A stretch of DNA of 32,000 nucleotides from Bermanella sp. WJH001. Its GTDB lineage: Bacteria > Pseudomonadota > Gammaproteobacteria > Pseudomonadales > Oceanobacteraceae. Location: contig NZ_CP194951.1 of the NCBI RefSeq assembly GCF_030070105.2, positions 965,511 to 997,510 of the forward strand. The letters run 5' to 3'. A program made the translations under genes and the position numbers. The stretch's first letter is position 1. Each line of letters starts with the position of its first letter. The notes under the pieces are model-generated. The model had not been told where the DNA came from. It ran no database searches and was given only the letters and a program-made list of their open reading frames with translations. Below are positions 4,361 through 15,499 of this stretch, piece by piece.

Positions 4361-5113
4361 ATGAATAAAGATAAAGAGCCAGAACAGTTAGCGTCTATTG
4401 CACTTAGCCGAGAGGAAATTGCCAGTCGTCAGCGCACTGCGGGTAAACTGAAACCACCCTCATCAAATACTACATCTACAAATGCGCCAAAGGTTTTGTG
4501 GGCATTAGTGGTTTTTGCCCTTGTTTTTTGTGTGGCTTTATTGGTGGAGCTTTATAGCGTTAAGCAGCAATCAGAGTTGCAATTGCAGGCGTTAACTATT
4601 TTACAAGAGAAGTTAACATCAACAGATGAACAAGCGAATTTATCGGTTGATGCGGTGAAAATTTTATTGCGTGAGCAAGACCATGAAATTAGAAAATTAT
4701 GGGATCTGGCTAATAAGCGAAATAAGGTTGATATCAGCAAAAATGCGGACCGATTAAACGATCAAAGTAAGTTGTTAACCAAGCACGCTGGCAAAATTGA
4801 TTTGTTGAATAAAGAGTTAGATAAAACTGAAAAACTGTTGTGTAGTGTCAGTACATCAAACAAACAAACTCAAGACAGTGTGAAAACCATAAAAAGTGAA
4901 TTAGAGCAGTCAAAAACCAATGTGTTACTGCTTGAGACCAAATTGGATTCAGGTTTGTCAGGTTTACCAAAAAATGTGGGTAAAACCCTAGAAGATCACG
5001 ACAAAGGCATTAAAGCTATGGATGCTACGCGCTTGCAATTAATGCGCAGGATTCAAGCACTTGAAAAAGAAATCAAAGCACTTAAGGCGCCAGCCCCCGC
5101 AGCACAACCTTAA
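4361..5113 (+). CDS. Hypothetical bitopic membrane protein with a long coiled-coil ectodomain
   Basis: Single hydrophobic helix VLWALVVFALVFCVALLVELY, then heptad-like K/E/L/Q-rich sequence. A strong terminator follows. Confidence 0.7.
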   Translation: MNKDKEPEQLASIALSREEIASRQRTAGKLKPPSSNTTSTNAPKVLWALVVFALVFCVALLVELYSVKQQSELQLQALTILQEKLTSTDEQANLSVDAVKILLREQDHEIRKLWDLANKRNKVDISKNADRLNDQSKLLTKHAGKIDLLNKELDKTEKLLCSVSTSNKQTQDSVKTIKSELEQSKTNVLLLETKLDSGLSGLPKNVGKTLEDHDKGIKAMDATRLQLMRRIQALEKEIKALKAPAPAAQP

Positions 5114-5128
5114 TGACGTGAATTCAAC

Positions 5129-5152
5129 AAAGCCCTTAATGGGCTTTTTTTT
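5129..5152 (+). terminator. Rho-independent terminator
   Basis: AAAGCCC-TTAAT-GGGCTTT followed by a T-run through 5152. Confidence 0.85.
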
Positions 5153-5162
5153 GGATGAAAAA

Positions 5163-6056
5163 ATGGATAGCAGATTCGAAACGCACCTTGCGCTGCCGTG
5201 TTTTAAACATTTTGATGAGTTTTCTGATGCGGTTTTATCACAAGATAAATCTCATAGCATGGATGTGGCGTTAAATATTGGACTGCGCTGTGTAAATTTA
5301 TCCCAAGGGTTTGCGGTGGCGTATCGTTGTGCGCTGCAAGCTTTAGTGCCGCAATTAAACCAAACACAATGGGCGGCCATGTGTGTGACAGAGCAGCAGG
5401 GAAATCATCCGCGTCATATCCAAACTCAACTTTATTCAGATGGCACGGTGAGCGGTGAAAAGAGCTTTGTGTCAATGGCTGGTTTAGCACAACAGTTACT
5501 TGTGATTGCGAAAGATACCGGCATTCAAACCCATGATGCTCGCCCGGTACTAAAAGCAGTATTGGTGGATACGAATCAAACCCAAGTAAAAATAGATAAA
5601 ATGCCCGCCATGAAAATGCTGGCCGATATTCCTCACGGTCGTTTGAGTCTAGAACATGCGAGCTGCGAAGTTTTAGAGGGCGATGGTTATGCGCAGTACA
5701 GCAAAGTATTTAGAGTGCTTGAGGATGCGCATATTTTAATGGCAGCCAGTGCCTTTATTTTGAATACGGCTTATAGGGCCGGGCAGGTGGATGTGGTTGC
5801 CAAAGCACTGTCAATTATTGGTCTATTAAAAGGCATGGATTTGAATGCAGGGCCTTGGGTGCATATACAATTAGCACAGGCATTTGAGCAGTTTTTAACG
5901 TTAAGTAATGTGTTTGAAGAGGGTTTATCTGTTTATGATGAAACGCTTGCGCAGGCTTGGCTGGCGGATAAAAAATTATTTGCCATTGCCTCTGGTGCGC
6001 GCCAAGCACGCACCGAAAAGGCCATGAGTTGGCTTAAAGCTAAGGGCGAGGAGTAG
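5163..6056 (+). CDS. Hypothetical protein, possibly with an acyl-CoA dehydrogenase-like fold
   Basis: Track ORF is 5061-6056. The start is moved to the ATG at 5163 because the upstream part overlaps the previous gene and its terminator. The segment VTEQQGNHPRHIQTQLYSDGTVSGEKSFVSMAGLAQQLLVIAK resembles the ACAD middle domain pattern (weak). Confidence 0.6.
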   Translation: MDSRFETHLALPCFKHFDEFSDAVLSQDKSHSMDVALNIGLRCVNLSQGFAVAYRCALQALVPQLNQTQWAAMCVTEQQGNHPRHIQTQLYSDGTVSGEKSFVSMAGLAQQLLVIAKDTGIQTHDARPVLKAVLVDTNQTQVKIDKMPAMKMLADIPHGRLSLEHASCEVLEGDGYAQYSKVFRVLEDAHILMAASAFILNTAYRAGQVDVVAKALSIIGLLKGMDLNAGPWVHIQLAQAFEQFLTLSNVFEEGLSVYDETLAQAWLADKKLFAIASGARQARTEKAMSWLKAKGEE

Positions 6057-6480
6057 AAACGAGCCCCCCTTGGTTTAGCACACCTGTGCTGTAGTGATTA
6101 CCATAACTGGATTCGTAATAGGTGTTCACTGGAATATTATTTTGTATCTGAATAGCAGGGGCACTGCCTTCTGTCGGAATACGTTTGCTATCTTTCAGTG
6201 ATAATAATTCTTCATCTGAGGTATCAGGTATTAATTCAGAGGTTTCACCTTCCATTTCTAAACGCGTGTCATCCAGTTCATTTAAATCTAAACGATTTAA
6301 ATCGATACTTTGTGCCGTTGTGCGTTTATATCGATAGGTGCTGCTGTAGTCATAATGATGGGGGCGTTCTTTTGCTTGGTTAACCGCATCGATTAAGTCA
6401 TCTGCATAATAGTTATCCATGGGTTCAACCCCAAAACTGTATGCGCTTGCGAATACTAAAATAAATAATAACTTCTTCAT
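6040..6480 (-). CDS. Secreted hypothetical protein, paralog 1 (C-terminus ...VSTPRP)
   Basis: Signal peptide MKKLLFILVFASAYSFG. Shares the YYxxDxxxAxxxAK, Y(S)xxYxYxRTTxxSxDL and terminal STPRP blocks with the adjacent ORF. Confidence 0.7.
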   Translation of the reverse strand: MKKLLFILVFASAYSFGVEPMDNYYADDLIDAVNQAKERPHHYDYSSTYRYKRTTAQSIDLNRLDLNELDDTRLEMEGETSELIPDTSDEELLSLKDSKRIPTEGSAPAIQIQNNIPVNTYYESSYGNHYSTGVLNQGGLVSTPRP

Positions 6481-6513
6481 AAATATCTATTCTTATTTTT
6501 TGCGACGGTAAGG

Positions 6514-7041
6514 CTAAGGCCTTGGGGTACTGGTGATCGTGCCACTGGTACTTAAGTTATTGGTGGTCACTGTATCACCACGAGGGAATTCATGGAATAT
6601 TTCCTGAATGAATCGTTCGTTATTGGGCGGTATAACAGGAGGGGCTTGCAGAGTAATCGCCGTTTCTTTGTTGGGGGTAGATTGCTCTAAATTCTTTTGC
6701 AGGGTTTGTGCTTGTTCTTCATCGGGTATGGTATCAGGGGTGCTCACCTTACCCGCGGCTGTAGGTTGAAGCGCGCCTTCTAAGCGTTCTTGTTCGAGTG
6801 CTTGAACGCCTAATTTAGGCAAATCAAATGATTTTGACGTAGTGCGGTTGTACCAGTAACGATTAGAGTAATTTACATTACGGTCGTTTTGTTTGGCTTC
6901 TAATATAGCAGCGTGAATATCATTACCGTAATAATCTTCACCCATGCGAATGTTATCTTCAGCGAGGGCAAAAGGCAGTAACAAGCATACGGGGAGTACT
7001 AACAGCAGAAACTTGCCACTTTTTATTAATATTCGTTCCAT
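6514..7041 (-). CDS. Secreted hypothetical protein, paralog 2 (C-terminus ...TSTPRP)
   Basis: Signal peptide ...LLVLPVCLLLPFALAED. Collinear with the 146-aa neighbour, including the identical C-terminal pentapeptide. Confidence 0.7.
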   Translation of the reverse strand: MERILIKSGKFLLLVLPVCLLLPFALAEDNIRMGEDYYGNDIHAAILEAKQNDRNVNYSNRYWYNRTTSKSFDLPKLGVQALEQERLEGALQPTAAGKVSTPDTIPDEEQAQTLQKNLEQSTPNKETAITLQAPPVIPPNNERFIQEIFHEFPRGDTVTTNNLSTSGTITSTPRP

Positions 7042-7891: not shown

Positions 7892-7934
7892 ACCCACACA
7901 ACTATTATTCAATTGATTATTGAGAGACCCTGCC

Positions 7935-9449
7935 ATGACTGTGATCAAGCAAGAAGATCTGATCCAGAGTGTTGCTGATGCCCTTCAGTATATTTCTTAT
8001 TACCACCCATTGGACTTCATCAAAGCGATGGAAGAAGCCTACGAGAAAGAAGAGAGCCAAGGCGCTAAAGACGCCATCGCTCAAATTCTAATCAACTCTC
8101 GTATGTGTGCCATGGGTCACCGCCCAATTTGTCAGGATACCGGTATTGTTACTGTATTTTTGACCATTGGTATGGACGTTAAATTTGAAGACGCCACTAT
8201 GGATGTAGAAGCCATGGCCAATGAAGGCGTGCGTCGTGCTTATTTGCTGCCTGATAACATTTTACGTGCATCGGTATTAGCCGACCCAGACGGTAAGCGC
8301 ACTAATACCAAAGACAATACTCCTGCGGTTATTCATACCAAGCTAGTTCAAGGTAACACTGTTGATGTACACGTGGCTGCAAAAGGCGGCGGCTCTGAGG
8401 CCAAGTCTAAGTTTGCCATGTTGAATCCGTCTGATTCGGTTGTAGATTGGGTACTTGAGCAAATTCCTAAAATGGGTGCGGGCTGGTGTCCACCAGGTAT
8501 GTTAGGCATAGGTATTGGTGGTACGGCTGAAAAAGCCATGATGATCGCCAAAGAAGCCTTGCTTGAACCAATTAACATCAAAGAATTACAAGCTCGTGGT
8601 GCGCAAAATCGTTCAGAAGAATTGCGTTTAGAGCTATACGAAAAAGTGAATAAATTAGGTATTGGTGCACAAGGTCTAGGCGGTTTAACCACTGTGTTAG
8701 ACGTTAAAGTTGCCGATTACCCAACACACGCGGCCAATAAACCCGTTGCTATCATTCCTAACTGTGCGGCTACGCGCCACGCGCACTTTGAGTTAGATGG
8801 TTCTGGTCCTGCTAAATTAGAACCGCCTAAGCTAGAAGATTGGCCTGAAATCACGTGGGAAGTAGGCGAAAGCGTACGTCGTGTTGATTTAAACACCATT
8901 ACTCGTGAAGAAATGAAAGACTGGAAGCCAGGGGAAACCATTTTGCTTAACGGTAAAATGCTTACCGGTCGTGATGCCGCCCATAAACGTATGGTGGATA
9001 TGATCGAAAAAGGCGAAGAGCTGCCAGTTGATCTTAAGAATCGTTTCATTTATTACGTGGGTCCGGTTGACCCAGTTCGTGAAGAAGTAGTTGGTCCTGC
9101 TGGCCCAACAACGGCAACACGCATGGACAAATTCACCCGTACCGTACTAGAAAAAACCGGTTTAATGGGCATGATCGGTAAAGCCGAACGTGGTCAAATT
9201 GCCATTGATGCAATCAAGGACAATCAAGCGTCTTACTTAATGGCAGTGGGTGGTGCCGCTTATCTGGTATCACAAGCCATTAAAAACGCAGAAGTAGTTG
9301 GCTTTGCAGACCTAGGTATGGAAGCTATCTACGAGTTTGATGTTGTGGACATGCCAGTTACCGTTGCGGTTGATGTGAACGGTACTTCTGTTCATAAAAC
9401 TGGCCCACAAGAGTGGTATGCGAAAATCAATGCGAAAGAAGTAAACTAA
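7935..9449 (+). CDS. fumA: Class I (Fe-S, FumA-type) fumarate hydratase
   Basis: ICQDTGIVTVF, GGGSEAKSKF, NCAATRHAHFELDG and C-terminal beta-subunit-like GPAGPTTATRMD are class I fumarase/tartrate dehydratase motifs. ATG at 7935 preferred over TTG at 7920. Confidence 0.9.
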   Translation: MTVIKQEDLIQSVADALQYISYYHPLDFIKAMEEAYEKEESQGAKDAIAQILINSRMCAMGHRPICQDTGIVTVFLTIGMDVKFEDATMDVEAMANEGVRRAYLLPDNILRASVLADPDGKRTNTKDNTPAVIHTKLVQGNTVDVHVAAKGGGSEAKSKFAMLNPSDSVVDWVLEQIPKMGAGWCPPGMLGIGIGGTAEKAMMIAKEALLEPINIKELQARGAQNRSEELRLELYEKVNKLGIGAQGLGGLTTVLDVKVADYPTHAANKPVAIIPNCAATRHAHFELDGSGPAKLEPPKLEDWPEITWEVGESVRRVDLNTITREEMKDWKPGETILLNGKMLTGRDAAHKRMVDMIEKGEELPVDLKNRFIYYVGPVDPVREEVVGPAGPTTATRMDKFTRTVLEKTGLMGMIGKAERGQIAIDAIKDNQASYLMAVGGAAYLVSQAIKNAEVVGFADLGMEAIYEFDVVDMPVTVAVDVNGTSVHKTGPQEWYAKINAKEVN

Positions 9450-9496: not shown

Positions 9497-9520
9497 ATGG
9501 GTGAATTATGAGGAGCAGTG

Positions 9521-9856
9521 ATGTTAACGGATTTACATTGTGAAATTTGTAATCGTGACTCGGTCAAAGTAACCGAGCAAGAGTGCGCTGAGTATTTAAA
9601 GTTTTTGCCTCACTGGCAAATAATTACAGAGAATAATGTACAAAAATTACGCCGTGAATTTAAATTTACTACATATCAAGCAGGATTGAACTTTACCAAT
9701 CAAGTGGCCGCGTTAGCAGAAGATGAAAACCACCATCCCGATCTGATATTGCAGTGGGGGCGCGTCACGGTAATATGGTGGACACATTCGATAAATGCTT
9801 TGCATAAAAATGATTTTATTTTAGCGGCTAAAACCGATGTTTTATATCAAGATTAA
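9521..9856 (+). CDS. phhB: Pterin-4-alpha-carbinolamine dehydratase
   Basis: About 110 aa. EDENHHPDL...WGRVTVIWWTHS...L..ND is the PCD/DCoH signature. Confidence 0.85.
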   Translation: MLTDLHCEICNRDSVKVTEQECAEYLKFLPHWQIITENNVQKLRREFKFTTYQAGLNFTNQVAALAEDENHHPDLILQWGRVTVIWWTHSINALHKNDFILAAKTDVLYQD

Positions 9857-10197
9857 CGGCTGAGCCGAATGGTACTTACTCTTAACACCCTGCCTTCACA
9901 GCCGTTGGTGATAATGGCCAGCGGCAAGCGGCTCTTGAAAGCCTCAAGGGCTAACAAAAAACGCCTTTGTGCCACCGCATCATATTCACTGTAAACCCGA
10001 TAAACATTGGAAGGCTTGCCACCGCAGTTGTGAATTTTATTACTTGAATGGATATCAAACGGAGCTTCTTCGTCATCTTCGCGCTGCTCTAAGGCACTTA
10101 CCACTAATCCCTCCACAATTTGATCGCTCGACCAAGATATGGCCGAAACTGTGCACATTAGCAGTGAGCAAATAAATATGCGTAATGACATTATCAT
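9853..10197 (-). CDS. Small secreted hypothetical protein (cysteine-containing)
   Basis: Signal peptide (MIM)SLRIFICSLLMCTVSAISWSS. The second ATG at 10191 has the better AGGA spacing. Its stop overlaps the phhB stop (TTAA, 9853-9856). A sigma-28-like promoter lies upstream. Confidence 0.55.
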   Translation of the reverse strand: MIMSLRIFICSLLMCTVSAISWSSDQIVEGLVVSALEQREDDEEAPFDIHSSNKIHNCGGKPSNVYRVYSEYDAVAQRRFLLALEAFKSRLPLAIITNGCEGRVLRVSTIRLSR

Positions 10198-10228
10198 CCT
10201 GTTTTAACTTTCTATTCTTATGTTGTGG

Positions 10229-10255
10229 CTATCGGCTTATTAACTAAAAACTAAA
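10229..10255 (-). promoter_or_regulatory. Sigma-28 (FliA)-like promoter reading into the 114-aa ORF
   Basis: The minus strand reads TTTAGTTT-N11-GCCGATAG, against the enterobacterial consensus TAAAGTTT-N11-GCCGATAA (13 of 16 positions, exact spacing). It lies about 30 nt upstream of the start codon. Confidence 0.45.
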
Positions 10256-10341
10256 GCTTTTTCAAAACTAAACATAGCGTGTGCTGATGCTTGGACTATG
10301 CTTTGTTTATAAGTGTATGGCGAAAATGGATGATGCCAAGG

Positions 10342-11442
10342 ATGAAGCATAATAACGGACTTTATTCATATAAATATGTAATTTTATCGGCACTATTTTT
10401 TATAGTTTGCGCCATATATTCGTCATATTCTGTGTCTGAAACGCGAGTTGTCACATCGGATGTTCCTGGTTTTGGCTTACCGCCTACCATGTATGCTGGT
10501 TTTTCTCGGCTTCTTGATGACGAAAGTATTTTAGTACCAGAAGAATTGTTAGACGTTGATAAAAATATCAAACGCATTGCCTTTTATTTTAATGGCGATC
10601 GCCTTCACCGAAAAATCCCCAAACAAGTCCACCTGATGATCGAGAATAAACTACTTGGTAAGTTCATGGGCCTTGGTCGTTTTGAAGTGATCGACTGTAT
10701 TGAATGCCGCACCACTCGAGTGAACTTTGAAGATTCCCGCATGCTCATTAGTCAAAGTGCTCAAAGCAACCAAGATTTGCGTAATTTATCCAAAGAAGTG
10801 CGTGCCGATGCCTTCCTGTTATGGAGTGCCAGTGTGCACGAAGAAAAATTCACCATAAATTTACGTCTAGTCAGTGCAAAAAGTAACGAACTGGTTTGGT
10901 TAAAAGAATACGCGAAAAAAACAACCCGTGAGCAAGAAGAGCTTGAATTTGAAAGCATTGAATTAGAAATGGTGGTCAGCTCTTGGGGGCTGGCGGCTGA
11001 ACGAGATGGTGTGGGGGCAGTAGAGGATGCGTCACTCAGTGGTGTAACTGGGTTTGGTATCCGTCGCCGCGAGTACACCACGTTAAATAAAGATGTGGAA
11101 TACAGCTTGGGGGTTGAATACTTCCGTAACTTTTCAAGTACCGATGAATTTAATATCAGCGGTTTTAATTTAGAAGGGCGAATTTTTGTCAACATTTCAG
11201 CGTTGAAAGACTGGGTAAATACCAAGGCCTATGTGGGTATTGGCCAAGCATTTTTTAGTGGCAGCCACGGCTTAATGATGAAGTTTGGATTGGAGTTTCC
11301 CTTTGTGACCAACGGCTTTATGGCCATAGGAGCTGTGTATTTAGTCAAAGAAGAAGTGGAATGGGATAGCAACTCAGATTATGAGGACAGCTCAGAGTTT
11401 GGTGGTGCAGGTTTAGATTTAACACTTGGCTATCGCTTTTAA
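10342..11442 (+). CDS. Putative outer-membrane beta-barrel protein with an N-terminal periplasmic domain (gene 1 of the motor-like operon)
   Basis: Signal peptide MKHNNGLYSYKYVILSALFFIVCAIYSSYSVSE. The C-terminal half shows alternating hydrophobic/G-rich strands and ends in LTLGYRF (terminal aromatic typical of BAM substrates). Start is ambiguous (10291, 10330 or 10342). Confidence 0.7.
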   Translation: MKHNNGLYSYKYVILSALFFIVCAIYSSYSVSETRVVTSDVPGFGLPPTMYAGFSRLLDDESILVPEELLDVDKNIKRIAFYFNGDRLHRKIPKQVHLMIENKLLGKFMGLGRFEVIDCIECRTTRVNFEDSRMLISQSAQSNQDLRNLSKEVRADAFLLWSASVHEEKFTINLRLVSAKSNELVWLKEYAKKTTREQEELEFESIELEMVVSSWGLAAERDGVGAVEDASLSGVTGFGIRRREYTTLNKDVEYSLGVEYFRNFSSTDEFNISGFNLEGRIFVNISALKDWVNTKAYVGIGQAFFSGSHGLMMKFGLEFPFVTNGFMAIGAVYLVKEEVEWDSNSDYEDSSEFGGAGLDLTLGYRF

Positions 11443-11452
11443 GGAATAAAAT

Positions 11453-12082
11453 ATGAAAACCATTTTATTGCCAGTCTTGATCTCAATTAGCGTTTTAGCT
11501 GGCTGCTCCATTGAGCAATTTGCTATGGAAAAAGACCCCTTTGTGGCGCAAAAGCCAGATAAAGACGTGGACCCCTTAACCGTAGACAGTGCCGAATACG
11601 CAAAAAATAATCATGGTCTAGTGAATATTCACCGCCATGGCCCAGGCTATGATGTGATGATGATGTTAAATGCGGGTGAGAGTGACATTATTTTTAGCAT
11701 GGATTTACCAGTCGGTGGTGAAACCTATATGCCTGAAATATCCGAGCAAATGAAAGCCCAGCGTGAAAAAGGAAAAGCGCCAGATAGCATTGAAGAAGAA
11801 AAAGATTTCTTTAACGAAAAAGCACTTTCATTATTTTCAGATGCCACCAAACATATGTTAAGTGCCCAAGCCTTGTTTTATCGTAAGTCCTACTGGAAAG
11901 CATTAGAAGAAACCAATAAAGCCATGTCACTGGTGCCATCGTCTGCGCAAGCTCATGCCCTGAAGGGCAGTATCTATTACAAGATGGGCAGAAAAAAAGA
12001 CGCCAAGGTTTCTTGGCAGCAAGCATTACAATTAGACCCTTCTTTAACGGACGTTAAAGAGAGTTTGAAACTCGTGAAGTAA
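11453..12082 (+). CDS. TPR-repeat lipoprotein (gene 2 of the motor-like operon)
   Basis: Lipobox VLAGC. The C-terminal sequence AQALFYRKSYWKALEETNKAMSLVPSSAQAHALKGSIYYKMGRKKDAKVSWQQALQLDP is TPR-like. AAGGA RBS, 10-nt gap to the upstream gene. Confidence 0.8.
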   Translation: MKTILLPVLISISVLAGCSIEQFAMEKDPFVAQKPDKDVDPLTVDSAEYAKNNHGLVNIHRHGPGYDVMMMLNAGESDIIFSMDLPVGGETYMPEISEQMKAQREKGKAPDSIEEEKDFFNEKALSLFSDATKHMLSAQALFYRKSYWKALEETNKAMSLVPSSAQAHALKGSIYYKMGRKKDAKVSWQQALQLDPSLTDVKESLKLVK

Positions 12083-12091
12083 GGGGCATCT

Positions 12092-14032
12092 ATGTTGAGA
12101 CAATATTTATTAGTAAGCCTTGCTCTAATTAGTATTTCGCTAATGGTTCAAGGAGCGAATAGTCCGGTAGAAGTGCAAACCAAAACCGACGACCTTGAAG
12201 AGATTCAATTAAAATCCCGCTTAGAAGAAAGCTTGGCTCGCGATATACAATCTTACTTAGGGCATAACCGCTTTATTGTGAATGTGAATGTAAGGCTTGA
12301 AAAAATACGTCAGGTGATCAAGAAAAAAAATAAACCAGAAACTAAACCTAATAAGGCATATCAGCCTACTTTTTTACCAAAGTTAACCTTTCCTAATTCG
12401 GTTGAATCAGATGACTCGGAACAAGTGGAAAGCCTGCCTGGTTTGCCGTTTGTTGATATTCCTGGTGATAAAGAAAAAGACGCAGAGCTTCAGTTTATGC
12501 GTGAGCAAATTGAACGCCTTCAAAATGAGCAGCGTCAGCCTAGGTGGCAAAACGGTGAAGGTGATGATGAGAATGGTAATGGCTCAACGGAGGAAACCGT
12601 AGGCGTATTTAATCGCATTGCAAAATTAAAAGTGACCCTTGCGGTTGAAGAAAGTATTAGCTCTGAGCAAGAGGCTTTTTTAAGAAATCTTGTTTATCAA
12701 AAAGCGGCGTTAAATGATTTACGTGGTGATGAATTAAAGATTGTTAAAACACAATTTTCTGCCTTACCCATCAGCGAAAAAGAAATGGCTAATTTGGCCT
12801 CCCCTTATACAGATGAGGCTGCACCTGCTCAAAGCTGGATGGATGAAAATTTTAACGCGCTATTATTAGGCTTGTTGAGTCTGCTTGCTTTGTTGTTAAT
12901 TAGTTTGATTATTTTGTCGTTACGTAAAAAGAATAAACCTAATGATTTACCAGCGGCCATACCTGTGCCTAAGGAACTCAGCGCTGAAAACCCCAAGCCA
13001 GCAGAGCAAGAAGGCCCAGATAATAAACAGATAATGCAAAAAACACGTCAAGAGATTATCTCTTTAGGCTTGGGCCAGCCTCAACATGTGCAAGGCACCA
13101 TGGATCAGTTGTTAAGCCAAGAAGAAAAAATCCCAATGGCGGCCTCTATTTACAAGGTATTAGGGCGCAGTTTATTTCGTTCTATTTTTCCTAATGTGGA
13201 ACAACTGCAACTGCAAAGTATCATGGCTCATTTAGCGGATCAGGCTCCTGATGAAGACCAGCAATTTCAAGATACCCAAGACTTTTATCAGTTGTTGCAA
13301 AAAGCGGTGCAAGAAACAGATGAAGTGAAATCTCATCCGTTTGAATTTTTAGGTAAGTTAAACGACAGCCAAGTGCTGTATTTGATGCAGCATGAAGATG
13401 CACGTATCCAGGCTTTAGTGATTAGTCAGTTGCAAGCACAACAAGCTGCAAGGGTTTTAAATCGAATCAATGAAAAACGCCAAGCCCAAGTGATTGCCGA
13501 ACTTGGCCAGTTTGAAACCTTCCCTCTTGATACCTTTAAGGATGTAGCAGATCGCTTAGCAAAAGCGGCACTTAAGGTTCCAAGCTTTGAAAATGTAAAC
13601 GCTGATGGCCTACACATGCTGATGAATATGTTAGATAACATGAATTCAACAGAAGAAAACAAAGTGCTAAAACGTTTAAAACAAGATAAGCCCGATACCT
13701 TTTATAAATTGCGCCAACAATATTTTACCTTTGCGGATATTGCTAAAACACCAAGGCAAATTCTTAGTAATGCCTTACGTGAAGTGGAACGTAGTTTTAT
13801 TGGGCGTGCCATTTGCGGCACACCGGATGAGTTTAAAATCCATGTTTTATCCTCGCTTACACCAAAACTCAAAGCTTTAGCGCAAGAAGATCTTAAACGC
13901 TATGAGGGACGAATAGCAGCAAAAGACATTGAACCAGCCCGTAAAGCCATTGTGCATAAACTGCGTGAGTACATTCATACGGGTAAATTTTCGATGGATG
14001 AGTTGCAAGCTAAAAAGCAGGCTGAATCATGA
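12092..14032 (+). CDS. Bitopic inner-membrane protein: FliF/YscJ-like ring-building periplasmic domain fused to a FliG-like (middle plus C-terminal) cytoplasmic domain
   Basis: N-terminal hydrophobic anchor. LEESLARDIQSYLGHNRFIVNVNVRLEK and KLKVTLAVEE...LRNLVYQKAALNDLRGDELKIVKTQF resemble FliF/YscJ RBM signatures. TM helix is LLLGLLSLLALLLISLIILSL. The C-terminal ~250 aa are collinear with FliG: FEFLGKLNDSQVLYLMQHEDARIQALVISQLQAQQAARVL..., YFTFADI (MFxF position), and KLKALAQEDLKRYEGR at the torque-helix position. Confidence 0.65.
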   Translation: MLRQYLLVSLALISISLMVQGANSPVEVQTKTDDLEEIQLKSRLEESLARDIQSYLGHNRFIVNVNVRLEKIRQVIKKKNKPETKPNKAYQPTFLPKLTFPNSVESDDSEQVESLPGLPFVDIPGDKEKDAELQFMREQIERLQNEQRQPRWQNGEGDDENGNGSTEETVGVFNRIAKLKVTLAVEESISSEQEAFLRNLVYQKAALNDLRGDELKIVKTQFSALPISEKEMANLASPYTDEAAPAQSWMDENFNALLLGLLSLLALLLISLIILSLRKKNKPNDLPAAIPVPKELSAENPKPAEQEGPDNKQIMQKTRQEIISLGLGQPQHVQGTMDQLLSQEEKIPMAASIYKVLGRSLFRSIFPNVEQLQLQSIMAHLADQAPDEDQQFQDTQDFYQLLQKAVQETDEVKSHPFEFLGKLNDSQVLYLMQHEDARIQALVISQLQAQQAARVLNRINEKRQAQVIAELGQFETFPLDTFKDVADRLAKAALKVPSFENVNADGLHMLMNMLDNMNSTEENKVLKRLKQDKPDTFYKLRQQYFTFADIAKTPRQILSNALREVERSFIGRAICGTPDEFKIHVLSSLTPKLKALAQEDLKRYEGRIAAKDIEPARKAIVHKLREYIHTGKFSMDELQAKKQAES

Positions 14033-14826
14033 TTAGCTTTAGTACGTTAATTGGCATAACCGCAGGTATTGGCTTATTTATTATGGCCATTATCAGTAGC
14101 ACTGATAATTACATGATGTTTATCAGTCTTGCCAGCGCCATGATGGTGATTGGTAGTACCTTTGCAGCGTCGTTGATTAGCTTTAGTTTTTTAGAGGTGA
14201 TGCATGCCATCAAAGCCATGTTTCAAACATTAGCGGCAAGTCGAACCACCCAAGGGCATTTACGTGACTTAGTAAAACGCTTTGTGGAATTTAGTCGTAT
14301 TTATCGTGACGGCGGTATTTCTGCCCTTGAGGACAGTTTAACCAAGCAAGAGAAAAAAGATGAATTTCTGGCGTTAGGTTTGGAGCTAATGGGTTCGGGT
14401 TACAAGCAAAGTGATATTCGCGTGATTATGGGGGATGCCATGGACAGTCATTGGCAGCGCCAAAGTTTAGAAGGCAAAATCCTCAATACCATGGGAGTGT
14501 ATGCACCGGGCTTTGGCATGGTGGGTACAATCGTAGGCTTGATCATCATGCTTGATAACATGGGTGATGATATGGCGAACTTGGGTAAGGGTCTTGCCTT
14601 GGCGTTAATCACCACCTTGTATGGTGTGTTATTGGCCAATTTGTTATTTAAACCCACCGCTGCCCAGGTGACCGAAAAACAAGAGCAGGAATATTTCCGT
14701 AATCAACTGATCACAGATGGGTTTGTATTGCTGGCCGAAAAGAAAGATGCCCTTGTGATGCAAGACCGTCTCAACGCTTATGTTAAACCCACTAAGCGCT
14801 TTACCATAGTTGAAGCCAATGAGTGA
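14029..14826 (+). CDS. MotA/PomA-family stator channel subunit
   Basis: Four-TM layout. Cytoplasmic loop RIYRDGGISALED. YAPGFGMVGTIVGLIIML...GKGLALALITTLYGVLLANLLFKP is the MotA_ExbB signature including the conserved Pro. The start overlaps the upstream stop (ATGA). Confidence 0.88.
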   Translation: MISFSTLIGITAGIGLFIMAIISSTDNYMMFISLASAMMVIGSTFAASLISFSFLEVMHAIKAMFQTLAASRTTQGHLRDLVKRFVEFSRIYRDGGISALEDSLTKQEKKDEFLALGLELMGSGYKQSDIRVIMGDAMDSHWQRQSLEGKILNTMGVYAPGFGMVGTIVGLIIMLDNMGDDMANLGKGLALALITTLYGVLLANLLFKPTAAQVTEKQEQEYFRNQLITDGFVLLAEKKDALVMQDRLNAYVKPTKRFTIVEANE

Positions 14827-15499
14827 TAAGGCCTACAAACGAGGTTTAAGACGTCGCCGGGCCACGTTTGATGCCGATGGTGAAGGCTGGTTGGTCACCT
14901 ATGCGGATGCCATAACCTTGTTATTGGCGTTTTTTGTTATGATTCTTTCAGTGTCTGACTTAAACCAAGGCAAGATAGAGGCATTAAAAGAAGGCTTGGC
15001 CAGTATTATTTCAGGCAAGCAAGCCGAAACCCCGTTTAACGATATTAAAGATGCGCTTAATGACATTGTTGCGCAGCACGATATGCAAGATAACGTGACG
15101 GTGGATATCGACATGAAAGGGGTAAGGGTAGAGTTCTCAAACTTCTCTCTTTATCAATCCGGCAGTGCCGCCATCAAGCCTGAAGCCTTGCCCATGCTGG
15201 CAGAGGTTAGCAAGGTCATCAAAGATACCAGTTCAGCCACCCATTTGATTGAAATCGAAGGCCATACTGATGATGTGCCCATCAGCACAGAGCGTTTCCC
15301 CTCAAATTGGGAGCTAAGCGCCTCACGTGCCAGCAATGTGGTGAAATACCTCATGGGTAAAGGTGTTAATAAGGAGCGCTTAAAGGCTTCTGGTTACGCA
15401 GATTCTCGTCCTAAGGCTAAACTTGAAGAAGGACAGGCCTTCACAGAAGAAGACAGGGCGGCAAATCGGCGTGTGGTGATTTATGTTCGCCGCTTCTGA
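14819..15499 (+). CDS. MotB-family stator subunit with an OmpA-like peptidoglycan-binding domain
   Basis: GWLVTYADAITLLLAFFVMIL is the MotB TM helix with the conserved Asp. IEIEGHTDDVPI...FPSNWELSASRASNVVKYL...ASGYADSRP...NRRVVI is the OmpA/MotB C-domain. ATG at 14819 overlaps the motA-like end by 8 nt. Confidence 0.88.
   Translation: MSDKAYKRGLRRRRATFDADGEGWLVTYADAITLLLAFFVMILSVSDLNQGKIEALKEGLASIISGKQAETPFNDIKDALNDIVAQHDMQDNVTVDIDMKGVRVEFSNFSLYQSGSAAIKPEALPMLAEVSKVIKDTSSATHLIEIEGHTDDVPISTERFPSNWELSASRASNVVKYLMGKGVNKERLKASGYADSRPKAKLEEGQAFTEEDRAANRRVVIYVRRF

Follow-up and report, generated by a model that had tools for sequence, protein, structure and literature searches.

FliG is held to be specific to flagella, and flagellar-type stators are thought to act on flagella alone. 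A recent survey of stator families places the flagellar type in a flagellum-specific clade and makes no mention of a FliG-fused partner (mBio 2025; PMC12505986), and a second survey reports rotor proteins without filament genes in 11% of non-motile species and asks whether rotor components serve some other function, naming no system (ISME J 2025; PMC12199754). In a Lysobacter paper, fliG and motAB are described as lost, not retained. A natural fusion of FliF to FliG is already known in the Chlamydiaceae (Bergeron 2016; PMC4768692), and engineered fusions of the two proteins form rings (PDB 8z4d; PMC11481574). Here we analyse a 32,000-nucleotide stretch of Bermanella sp. WJH001 (assembly GCF_030070105.2, contig NZ_CP194951.1, positions 965,511 to 997,510 of the forward strand), hereafter the window, in which five adjacent genes encode the torque core of a flagellar motor (ring, FliG and stator) together with two outer-membrane partners and without the rest of the flagellum. 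We propose that this operon is an autonomous, filament-less and switch-less ion-driven rotor–stator module, a reading to which we assign a probability of about 60%.

The five open reading frames, here called g1 to g5, lie on the + strand and are separated by gaps of 9-10 nucleotides or joined by overlapping start and stop codons, and their coordinates bear out the arrangement described in an earlier inspection of the letters alone (the sequence-only reading). That reading had opened the operon at 10198, a position that merely opens the intergenic region; g1 begins at 10291 at the earliest. The genes, and the parts of g3 on which the argument turns, are as follows.

10291-11442, + strand: g1, outer-membrane barrel protein; longest open reading frame, with a TTG start
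11453-12082, + strand: g2, tetratricopeptide repeat (TPR) lipoprotein; open reading frame 10 nucleotides after g1
12092-14032, + strand: g3, fused FliF–FliG rotor protein; open reading frame of 646 amino acids, 9 nucleotides after g2
12167-12757, + strand: periplasmic RBM3-type domain of g3 (residues 26-222), from profile and Foldseek matches
12854-12925, + strand: transmembrane helix of g3 (residues 255-278), from the sequence; helix 254-278 in the AlphaFold2 model
13022-13993, + strand: cytoplasmic FliG part of g3, with N-like (residues 311-409), FliG_M (418-496) and FliG_C (528-634) domains
13862-13903, + strand: torque helix of g3 (residues 591-604), PKLKALAQEDLKRY, from a BLASTP alignment to E. 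coli FliG
14029-14826, + strand: g4, stator A subunit; open reading frame of 265 amino acids, overlapping g3 at ATGA
14819-15499, + strand: g5, stator B subunit; open reading frame overlapping g4 by 8 nucleotides, with an alternative TTG start at 14810

The central component is g3, which joins a FliF-like RBM3/β-collar domain through a single transmembrane helix to what appears to be a complete FliG. Its parts follow one another as a signal peptide, the RBM3-type domain, the transmembrane helix, a disordered linker and the FliG N-like, M and C domains; because the transmembrane helix is followed by RKKNK, the C-terminal half is placed in the cytoplasm. Pfam recognises FliG_M (PF14841, 1.9e-12) and FliG_C (PF01706, 2.8e-17), a profile of 35 family members finds the FliG structures 3hjl (1e-20) and 1lkv (2.6e-20) in the PDB, and Foldseek aligns about 315 columns of the AlphaFold2 model (pLDDT 71, pTM 0.29) to full-length FliG (3hjl and 8umx, best E value 3e-10). 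The FliG_N position, residues 311-409, has no significant Pfam match in g3 itself, and PF14842 matches the equivalent region in distant family members. Homology to both FliF and FliG is found within 12092-14032, and of the two likenesses that the sequence-only reading had assigned to this protein, the FliG-like cytoplasmic half stands on Pfam, PDB-profile and Foldseek matches alike, and the FliF-like periplasmic half is limited to an RBM3/β-collar-like domain.

The evidence for that periplasmic assignment comes from profiles and predicted structure. Positions 157-323 of the 35-member profile align to residues 355-523 of Salmonella FliF (6scn, E value 1e-4), and Foldseek places the periplasmic domain on S-ring/RBM3 structures (8z5v, 7bk0, 6sd1 and 7d84; E value ~1e-3, probability 1.0, TM-score ~0.45), with SpoIIIAG as a weaker match. 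The Pfam family PF08345 passes its threshold in g3 relatives of ~38% identity and in a separate, split form of the protein described below. Two long β-strands (residues 61-79 and 165-186) resemble the β-collar of FliF, and the hairpin that they form carries a disordered, variable insertion of 85 residues (80-165). Within this insertion the motif LPGLP (residues 115-119, 12434-12448) is invariant in the family alignment, as is RGD (residues 211-213, 12722-12730), which closes the domain; both are largely kept in a 20-sequence alignment of relatives at ~20% identity, in which LPG is invariant or nearly so. LPGLP is a candidate contact for the TPR domain of g2 or for g1. RBM1 and RBM2 of FliF are absent: there is no YscJ_FliF N-terminal Pfam match, nothing aligns before FliF residue ~355, and the periplasmic region is only ~230 residues long. 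Lacking RBM1 and RBM2, g3 would offer no housing for an export gate.

In other respects, too, g3 departs from its flagellar relatives. Unlike the soluble FliG of ~330 residues it is a membrane-anchored fusion of 646, and it scores 73 bits against the fliG equivalog TIGR00207, for which the cutoff is 226.7. The FliM-binding EHPQR motif of FliG_M has not been retained ('QHEDARI' in g3 vs 'DEHPQII' in E. coli), a loss that fits the absence of FliM and FliN genes in or near any module.

The last two genes encode a flagellar-type MotA/MotB pair with channel aspartate, plug, peptidoglycan anchor and the rotor-contact arginine and glutamate, so that the stator assignment made from the sequence alone is upheld by Pfam, NCBIfam and PDB alignments. 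The A subunit, g4, is of MotA/PomA type, with four transmembrane segments and a cytoplasmic torque-generating loop; it matches MotA_ExbB (PF01618) at 5e-22 and aligns end to end with stators solved by cryo-electron microscopy (8ucs and 6ysf, 2.6e-34; PomA 8bri, 1.2e-29). In NCBIfam it is closest to MotP (3.9e-48), MotA (3.6e-41) and PomA (7e-40), all below cutoff, vs 3.6e-3 for TolQ and 3.4e-3 for ExbB. The B subunit, g5, has a basic cytoplasmic N-terminus, a transmembrane segment with the channel aspartate, a plug and an OmpA-like peptidoglycan-binding domain (MotB_plug 2.1e-14, OmpA 8.5e-18); its best PDB matches are flagellar B subunits (6ysf_A, 3e-27, and PomB), and it reaches 1.6e-54 against MotD, again below cutoff. 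Since every NCBIfam equivalog cutoff is widely missed (g4: MotP 163.8 vs 394 and PomA 136.9 vs 341; g5: MotD 185.2 vs 283), the operon proteins are relatives, not orthologs, of the named flagellar proteins.

Residues at which rotor and stator meet in the flagellar motor can be traced in this pair of partners. In the BLASTP alignment K592 of g3 corresponds to R281 of E. coli FliG, and E599/D600 correspond to D288/D289; among the family sequences K592 never varies, position 600 holds D or E in 35/35 and E599 occurs in 17/35. On the stator side 'YRDGGISALED' of g4 aligns with 'ARREGLLSLED' of 8ucs and 'ARKGGFLALEE' of PomA, so placing its Arg and Glu at the positions of PomA R88/E96 (E. coli R90/E98), and the channel aspartate in the 'TYAD' of g5 is D30, counted from the ATG at 14819, and invariant in 9 lineages. 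The E. coli FliG and V. alginolyticus PomA sequences that served as guides to position are consistent with published residue numbers and with the PDB alignments. The pairing of basic FliG and acidic MotA residues is kept in 8/9 lineages. The acidic pair of FliG (equivalent to D288/D289) and the MotA Arg are jointly missing at the loci labelled L014/L015, L018 and L019, each of which has an acidic residue two positions further along the torque helix. This joint loss suggests rotor–stator co-variation, in a small sample and on an uncertain alignment.

The remaining two proteins account for the outer-membrane side. The translation of g1 has a Sec signal peptide followed by a conserved N-terminal peptide that is unstructured, then a periplasmic α/β domain and a C-terminal barrel ending in YRF; because all homologs begin with an ordinary Sec signal peptide, the real start is probably an ATG at 10330-10342. 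In the AlphaFold2 model (pLDDT 71, pTM 0.45) the periplasmic domain is followed by an 8-stranded barrel that Foldseek matches to OmpA, OmpX, NspA and Ail (E values 5e-6 to 3e-4). This agrees with the outer-membrane β-barrel read from the sequence, and on the model the barrel would be a small anchor of the OmpA/OmpX type, not a pore or channel. The periplasmic domain matches LpoB and TolB and so has an LpoB/TolB-N/FlgO-like fold. No Pfam family exceeds its threshold in g1; weak matches across the family are to FlgO (27/30 members), FlgT_M (7), LpoB (3) and CsgG (2), the best of them to FlgO at 1.3e-4, under the Pfam cutoff. A CxxC motif in the periplasmic domain (CIEC, residues 136-139, 10696-10707) is invariant in 30 family members, recurs as CMEC in the distant homolog at locus L016 and is absent from the Fibrobacterota homolog; it may form a disulfide or bind a metal. 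The second partner, g2, is an outer-membrane TPR lipoprotein, as the sequence had suggested: it has the lipobox LAGC, with Ser at +2, and C-terminal repeats at about residues 119-205 (TPR_1 3e-9, TPR_2 1.6e-8). Its weak, sub-threshold matches are to PilW, GltE, Tgl and FlcA (the last at 0.012), and a homologous g2 partner occurs in every complete module, that of the Fibrobacterota included.

These parts permit a reading in which no ring rotates in a sustained way. The FliG ring might serve as a docking site that unplugs a MotAB-type channel, with ion flow used for envelope work or for signalling through g1 and g2, much as Tol-Pal or ExbBD–TonB pass energy to the outer membrane. Loose parallels with Tol-Pal are consistent with such an energiser or signalling device, as the operon pairs an ion-driven motor with a TolB-N-like fold in g1, a CpoB-like TPR protein and an OmpA-like anchor; rotor and stator both appear to be tethered to the envelope, and there is no axle or filament. 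We nevertheless consider it unlikely, given that g4 is of flagellar type by the MotP and TolQ scores above and retains the large cytoplasmic torque-generating loop with its charges, that the torque helix of FliG is conserved, and that RBM3/β-collar is a ring-forming module.

The stator genes also raise the possibility of an anti-phage defence of the Zorya kind, in which a MotAB-like motor is coupled to effectors. The profiles of ZorB do match g5 at 5e-20, as they would any MotB, and the match to ZorA, over 70 residues, reaches no better than 2e-3; g4 has 265 residues and lacks the long tail of ZorA. The first three genes have no PADLOC match, the operon brings no ZorC or ZorD, nuclease or other effector, and its chromosomal position amid housekeeping genes is stable across genera. 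PADLOC returned generic MotB matches only, and we reject a defence system as highly improbable. A plasmid-borne or mobile module was likewise rejected, as tblastn gave no match at 1e-10 in 72,556 plasmids.

Whether the five genes form a unit was addressed by following the rotor protein through other genomes. An exhaustive search of representatives returned 2,660 proteins at E ≤ 1e-3, of which 481 reach ≤ 1e-10; many measure 560-720 residues and align over residues ~175-640, and the M and C domains of FliG are kept in the ten distant representatives that were scanned. Among the 74 loci retrieved, hidden Markov models built from seven lineages find all five families together in 47; in another 26 the contig ends at the very place where the missing gene is expected, and only one (L017) lacks the partners despite having room for them. 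Because several of the 74 duplicate the same contig or population, they are not independent observations. The Oleispira/Thalassolituus clade, at ~38% identity, has the same five genes; locus L012 has the block between completely different flanks; L018 keeps the gene order of the window at 27% rotor identity; and at L019 the module is intact at 23%. Two further gene orders occur, g3-g1-g2-g4-g5 in Fibrobacterota metagenome-assembled genomes (L014/L015) and g1-g2-g4-g5-g3 at L016, and all five proteins of L014-L016 are homologous to those of the window by phmmer. A profile search with the divergent alignment gave at least 11 matches, Fibrobacterota members among them. The block is in this way conserved as a unit through three gene orders and unrelated flanks, down to 23% rotor identity.

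At none of the 74 loci does a further FliG, MotA or MotB lie within ±10 kb, flagellar genes are missing from the Pfam-annotated neighbours at L009-L020, and the block was seen in some ten different genomic settings without once lying in a flagellar locus. This bears on the idea that the operon is a decaying relic of a secondary or lateral flagellar system, for which it can be said that every recognisable domain derives from flagellar motor proteins. In a comparison with the closest relative, L001, the ratio of nonsynonymous to synonymous substitution (dN/dS) is 0.020 for g1, 0.049 for g2, 0.027 for g3, 0.035 for g4 and 0.025 for g5, at a dS of 0.36-0.87; more distant comparisons are saturated but concordant. 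Such values, all within 0.02-0.05, together with reading frames that are intact in the 47 complete loci, the retention of the same five genes from Oceanospirillales to Fibrobacterota, the constant presence of two non-flagellar outer-membrane partners and the lack of flagellar neighbours at any locus, argue strongly for a module under selection. Low dN/dS and module co-occurrence effectively refute the relic reading, and we give it very little credence.

Variants of the locus were also seen. A split form (L021:2-3227, on a contig cut upstream) encodes in order MotA, MotB, a mini-FliF of 382 residues, in which PF08345 passes, and a FliG-like protein of 310 residues; from this unfused arrangement it follows that g3 is a fusion of two genes that are also found side by side. 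Standalone FliG-like proteins of ~310 residues reach 86-158 bits, where the fliG equivalog cutoff is 226.7. On a 2.1-Mb contig, L017:10001-13709 encodes a 771-residue rotor variant that is extended at its C-terminus by a long acidic stretch. A KAP-family NTPase comes next, and no MotA, MotB, g1 or g2 occurs within 10 kb; this could be a different use of a membrane-anchored FliG, or the partners could be encoded elsewhere. At three Oleispira-type loci (L009:13595-17280, L010:13562-17138 and L020:13368-17062) a protein of ~630 residues with no Pfam match and then an Aq_1262-family protein come after the module on the same strand, and at L018:13581-14927 a 448-residue protein, also without a Pfam match, starts 17 nucleotides after MotB. 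These downstream proteins could be lineage-specific extra partners; the window has no equivalent of them, as pyrG comes next.

The identified hosts are Bermanella, Oceaniserpentilla, Oleispira antarctica RB-8, Thalassolituus species and members of the Saccharospirillaceae, and further Vibrio nigripulchritudo, two other Vibrio strains and Fibrobacterota metagenome-assembled genomes. In their source annotations the proteins appear as 'hypothetical', as 'FliG C-terminal domain-containing protein' or, automatically, as 'flagellar motor switch protein FliG'. We take Thalassolituus, Bermanella and Vibrio nigripulchritudo to be flagellated. Most of the identified hosts live attached to insoluble substrates, oil and possibly polysaccharide, and this gives no more than a hint of what the module might do. 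Oleispira antarctica carries a single polar flagellum and has its flagellar and chemotaxis genes gathered in one 75-kb cluster (PMC3759055). The Oleispira-type module, seen on a metagenome scaffold with an identical g1 protein, lies between gspD, maf, sodB, fumarase and phhB, with no flagellar neighbour. The same genome is credited with 'two stator systems MotAB and PomAB', with swarming as a speculated role (PMC3759055); one of the two may be the stator of the module instead of a second flagellar stator.

A motor with flagellated hosts could be an accessory of the canonical polar flagellum, whether as an alternative or 'parking' rotor that holds a second set of stators sequestered or activates it in advance, as a brake or clutch, or as an assembly platform. 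In keeping with such a role, TPR proteins, the class to which g2 belongs, are common stator scaffolds in polar motors. The identified cultured hosts are polarly flagellated (for Oleispira, PMC3759055), the two stator systems counted in Oleispira may include that of the module, and the periplasmic part of g1 bears a weak likeness to FlgO and FlgT_M of the Vibrio H-ring (PMC13626733). An accessory would, however, have no need of a FliG and a ring-building FliF domain of its own, and the module never adjoins flagellar genes in its ten or so contexts. The five genes travel together across phyla with their order shuffled, and the FliM-binding motif has been lost. On balance an accessory role appears improbable.

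The reading that we favour, an autonomous rotor–stator module, can be put as a sequence of steps. Through its RBM3 domain g3 would oligomerise into an inner-membrane ring, so that MS-ring and FliG ring would be built from one polypeptide at a fixed 1:1 stoichiometry. Peptidoglycan-anchored g4/g5 units, presumably 5:2, would dock on the FliG_C ring and unplug, and the flow of H+ or Na+ through them would turn the g3 ring. As there is no switch complex, rotation would presumably be unidirectional. On the other side of the inner membrane g1 and g2 would build a periplasmic assembly tethered to the outer membrane. This might act as a stator scaffold or bushing, by analogy with the FlgO/FlgT H-ring and with MotX, PflA/B and FlcA, TPR or Sel1 proteins by which stators are positioned in other polar motors. 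In Vibrio, FlgO and FlgT are subunits of the H-ring (PMC13626733). The assembly might alternatively be the load that the rotor drives, perhaps by engaging it with the invariant LPGLP motif in the loop at the β-collar's tip; extended peptides are ligands of TPR domains. That such parts make up a complete envelope-spanning machine, as had been read from the sequence, is something we infer. Consistent with it, neither FliM/FliN nor export-gate, rod, hook or filament genes accompany the module.

Several observations weigh against this proposal. That g3 forms a ring, that the stator is 5:2 and docks on it, and that the ring rotates are predictions from homology. The Pfam match of g3 to YscJ_FliF_C over residues 54-222 is sub-gathering (4.6e-4; 21.1 vs a cutoff of 23.8), a PDB search with residues 1-330 as a single sequence returned spurious amyloid-precursor matches only and no FliF, and the FliF similarity is visible at the level of profile and structure only, with AlphaFold2 confidence moderate for both g1 and g3. 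The MotA Arg and the acidic pair of FliG are not conserved in the lineages furthest from the window, at positions where the alignment is uncertain. Flagella are present in the identified cultured hosts, so a link to the flagellum is possible. If the rotor is tethered to the envelope through g1 and g2 while the stator is held by peptidoglycan, free rotation needs explaining, and the module genes give no clue to mechanical output.

A wider proposal can be made only tentatively, and we think it somewhat doubtful: that the module represents a new class of envelope machine, in which a dedicated flagellar-type stator turns a homo-oligomeric FliF–FliG ring for an output other than filament rotation, as an ancient exaptation of the flagellar core or a surviving relative of the rotor–stator that preceded the flagellum, and that it ranges from Gammaproteobacteria to Fibrobacterota and may include non-flagellated lineages. 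Under this proposal the rotation might move or remodel components tethered to the outer membrane, or serve some surface-associated behaviour on insoluble material, oil droplets or polysaccharides for example.

Upstream of g1 the sequence is conserved among seven Bermanella-clade loci in a segment that can be listed with the genes on the left flank.

10230-10345, + strand: conserved upstream or leader region, from an alignment of 7 Bermanella-clade upstream regions
7920-9449: class I fumarase, left flank of the operon
9518-9856: phhB, left flank of the operon

In these seven upstream regions TATCGGC (10230-10236) and AAACATAGCG (10270-10279) are invariant, an inverted pair CATAG…CTATG is present, and conservation at the nucleotide level runs into the annotated 5′ end of g1 as far as its probable start. 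The region is possibly a promoter, an operator or a leader RNA. A promoter and terminator scan found no σ70-like sites above shuffled expectation, and by eye the conserved blocks match neither the σ54 nor the σ28 consensus on the + strand. Read in reverse complement, TATCGGC is similar to the σ28 −10 element GCCGATAA, for which a matching −35 was not seen. No Rfam family marks a regulatory RNA near the operon, the two matches obtained, both upstream of phhB, being at chance level.

The operon is flanked, as the sequence-only reading had it, by fumarase and phhB on one side (with a small divergent open reading frame between) and by pyrG and eno on the other. Its further claim that no other flagellar, chemotaxis, pilus or secretion gene occurs in the window was borne out by Pfam scans of the remaining open reading frames of at least 120 residues, except three at the 3′ end; in those scans genes for the export apparatus, rod, hook, filament, FliM/N and chemotaxis were all absent. 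The rest of the window is housekeeping by Pfam (maf, sodB, ispD, ispF, truD, surE, pcm, an nlpD-like gene, rpoS and rmuC), and its GC content is in no way unusual. The small divergent open reading frame (9853-10197, − strand) encodes 114 residues with a signal-peptide-like N-terminus and no Pfam match. Unannotated frames of 115-119 residues occupy the same strand and the same position between phhB and the module at the Oleispira-type loci L009, L010 and L020, and lineages with other flanks do not have the small frame there; it probably lies outside the module. Between sodB and a DUF2846 gene, two adjacent + strand frames (4361-5113 and 5061-6056) and two on the − strand (6040-7041) have little or no Pfam signal, their sole match being a marginal one to Acyl-CoA_dh_M. 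Unannotated genes of similar size and arrangement occupy this position at the Oleispira-type loci, and these frames seem unrelated to the operon.

With FliG and flagellar-type stators so firmly associated with flagella, the module is a concrete, widespread and strongly selected candidate for flagellar rotor parts at work outside the flagellum. Should it rotate, it would be a new entry in the short list of biological rotary machines and a much simplified system for the study of stator–rotor mechanics, and it would bear on the origin of the flagellar motor and on whether secretion or rotation came first. The question can be tested, since Oleispira antarctica RB-8, Thalassolituus species and Vibrio nigripulchritudo are cultured hosts suited to genetics. 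More immediately, the module may have caused miscounts of 'second flagellar stators' in genome annotations.

How the module stands among known systems can now be set out. Profile, PADLOC and full-text comparisons yielded no match to a described system, in line with what the sequence alone had suggested; no description of it was found in the full-text papers searched, which include few from subscription journals, and no profile library names such a system. With TolQR–TolA–TolB–Pal–CpoB, ExbBD–TonB, AglRQS–Glt, GldLM and ZorAB it shares an ion-driven inner-membrane motor encoded together with periplasmic or outer-membrane partners, and with Tol-Pal in particular a TolB-N-like fold, a TPR protein, an OmpA-like anchor and an envelope-spanning logic. 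These other 5:2 motors act through a periplasmic or transmembrane partner, in contrast to a cytoplasmic FliG ring. Tol-Pal and ExbBD–TonB were rejected as assignments on the NCBIfam scores of g4 (tolQ 3.6e-3 and exbB 3.4e-3 vs MotP 3.9e-48) and because no TolA- or TonB-like protein is encoded, and Agl–Glt was rejected on the scores of g2 against GltE (18.7 bits vs a cutoff of 225) and Tgl (17.1 vs 225).

Closer in the fold classes of g1 and g2 are the proteins that surround flagellar rotors and position their stators, namely the FlgO/FlgP/FlgT H-ring and MotX/MotY T-ring, PflA/PflB and the FlcA scaffold, in which FlgO/FlgT_M-type outer-membrane proteins and TPR-class proteins are likewise found. 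The likeness to these Vibrio, Campylobacter and spirochaete scaffolds is weak (FlgO 1.3e-4, FlcA 0.012); unlike FlgO, g1 adds an integral 8-stranded barrel, and the module has no LP-ring or rod to surround. The Chlamydiaceae fusion, the sole natural FliF–FliG fusion found in the literature searched, shares with g3 a single polypeptide composed of a reduced FliF periplasmic region, a transmembrane segment and a FliG-like part, at a locus without most flagellar genes. As described, that protein has ~330 residues, an RBM2-like domain with a second RBM and a FliG_M-like region only; it has no torque-generating FliG_C and no dedicated MotAB, and an injectisome role has been proposed for it (PMC4768692). 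By description g3 is set apart from it by its ~646 residues, RBM3/β-collar-like domain, apparently complete FliG and stator partner.

It is the flagellar motor's core that the module resembles in most detail, having in common with it an RBM3/β-collar-like domain, the M and C domains of FliG and probably its N domain, torque-helix charges that face the MotA Arg and Glu, the MotB aspartate, plug and anchor, and a stator of the PomA/MotP/MotC-like type. It differs from that core in that FliF and FliG are one polypeptide; in that RBM1 and RBM2 of FliF, the FliM/FliN switch, the export apparatus, rod, LP-ring, hook and filament are missing; in that it has an outer-membrane barrel protein and a TPR lipoprotein of its own; and in that it lies outside flagellar loci, with proteins outside the FliG, FliF and MotAB/PomAB equivalog families. 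What looks undescribed, in short, is a flagellar-type rotor–stator in filament-less, switch-less and export-less form, equipped with its own outer-membrane partners.

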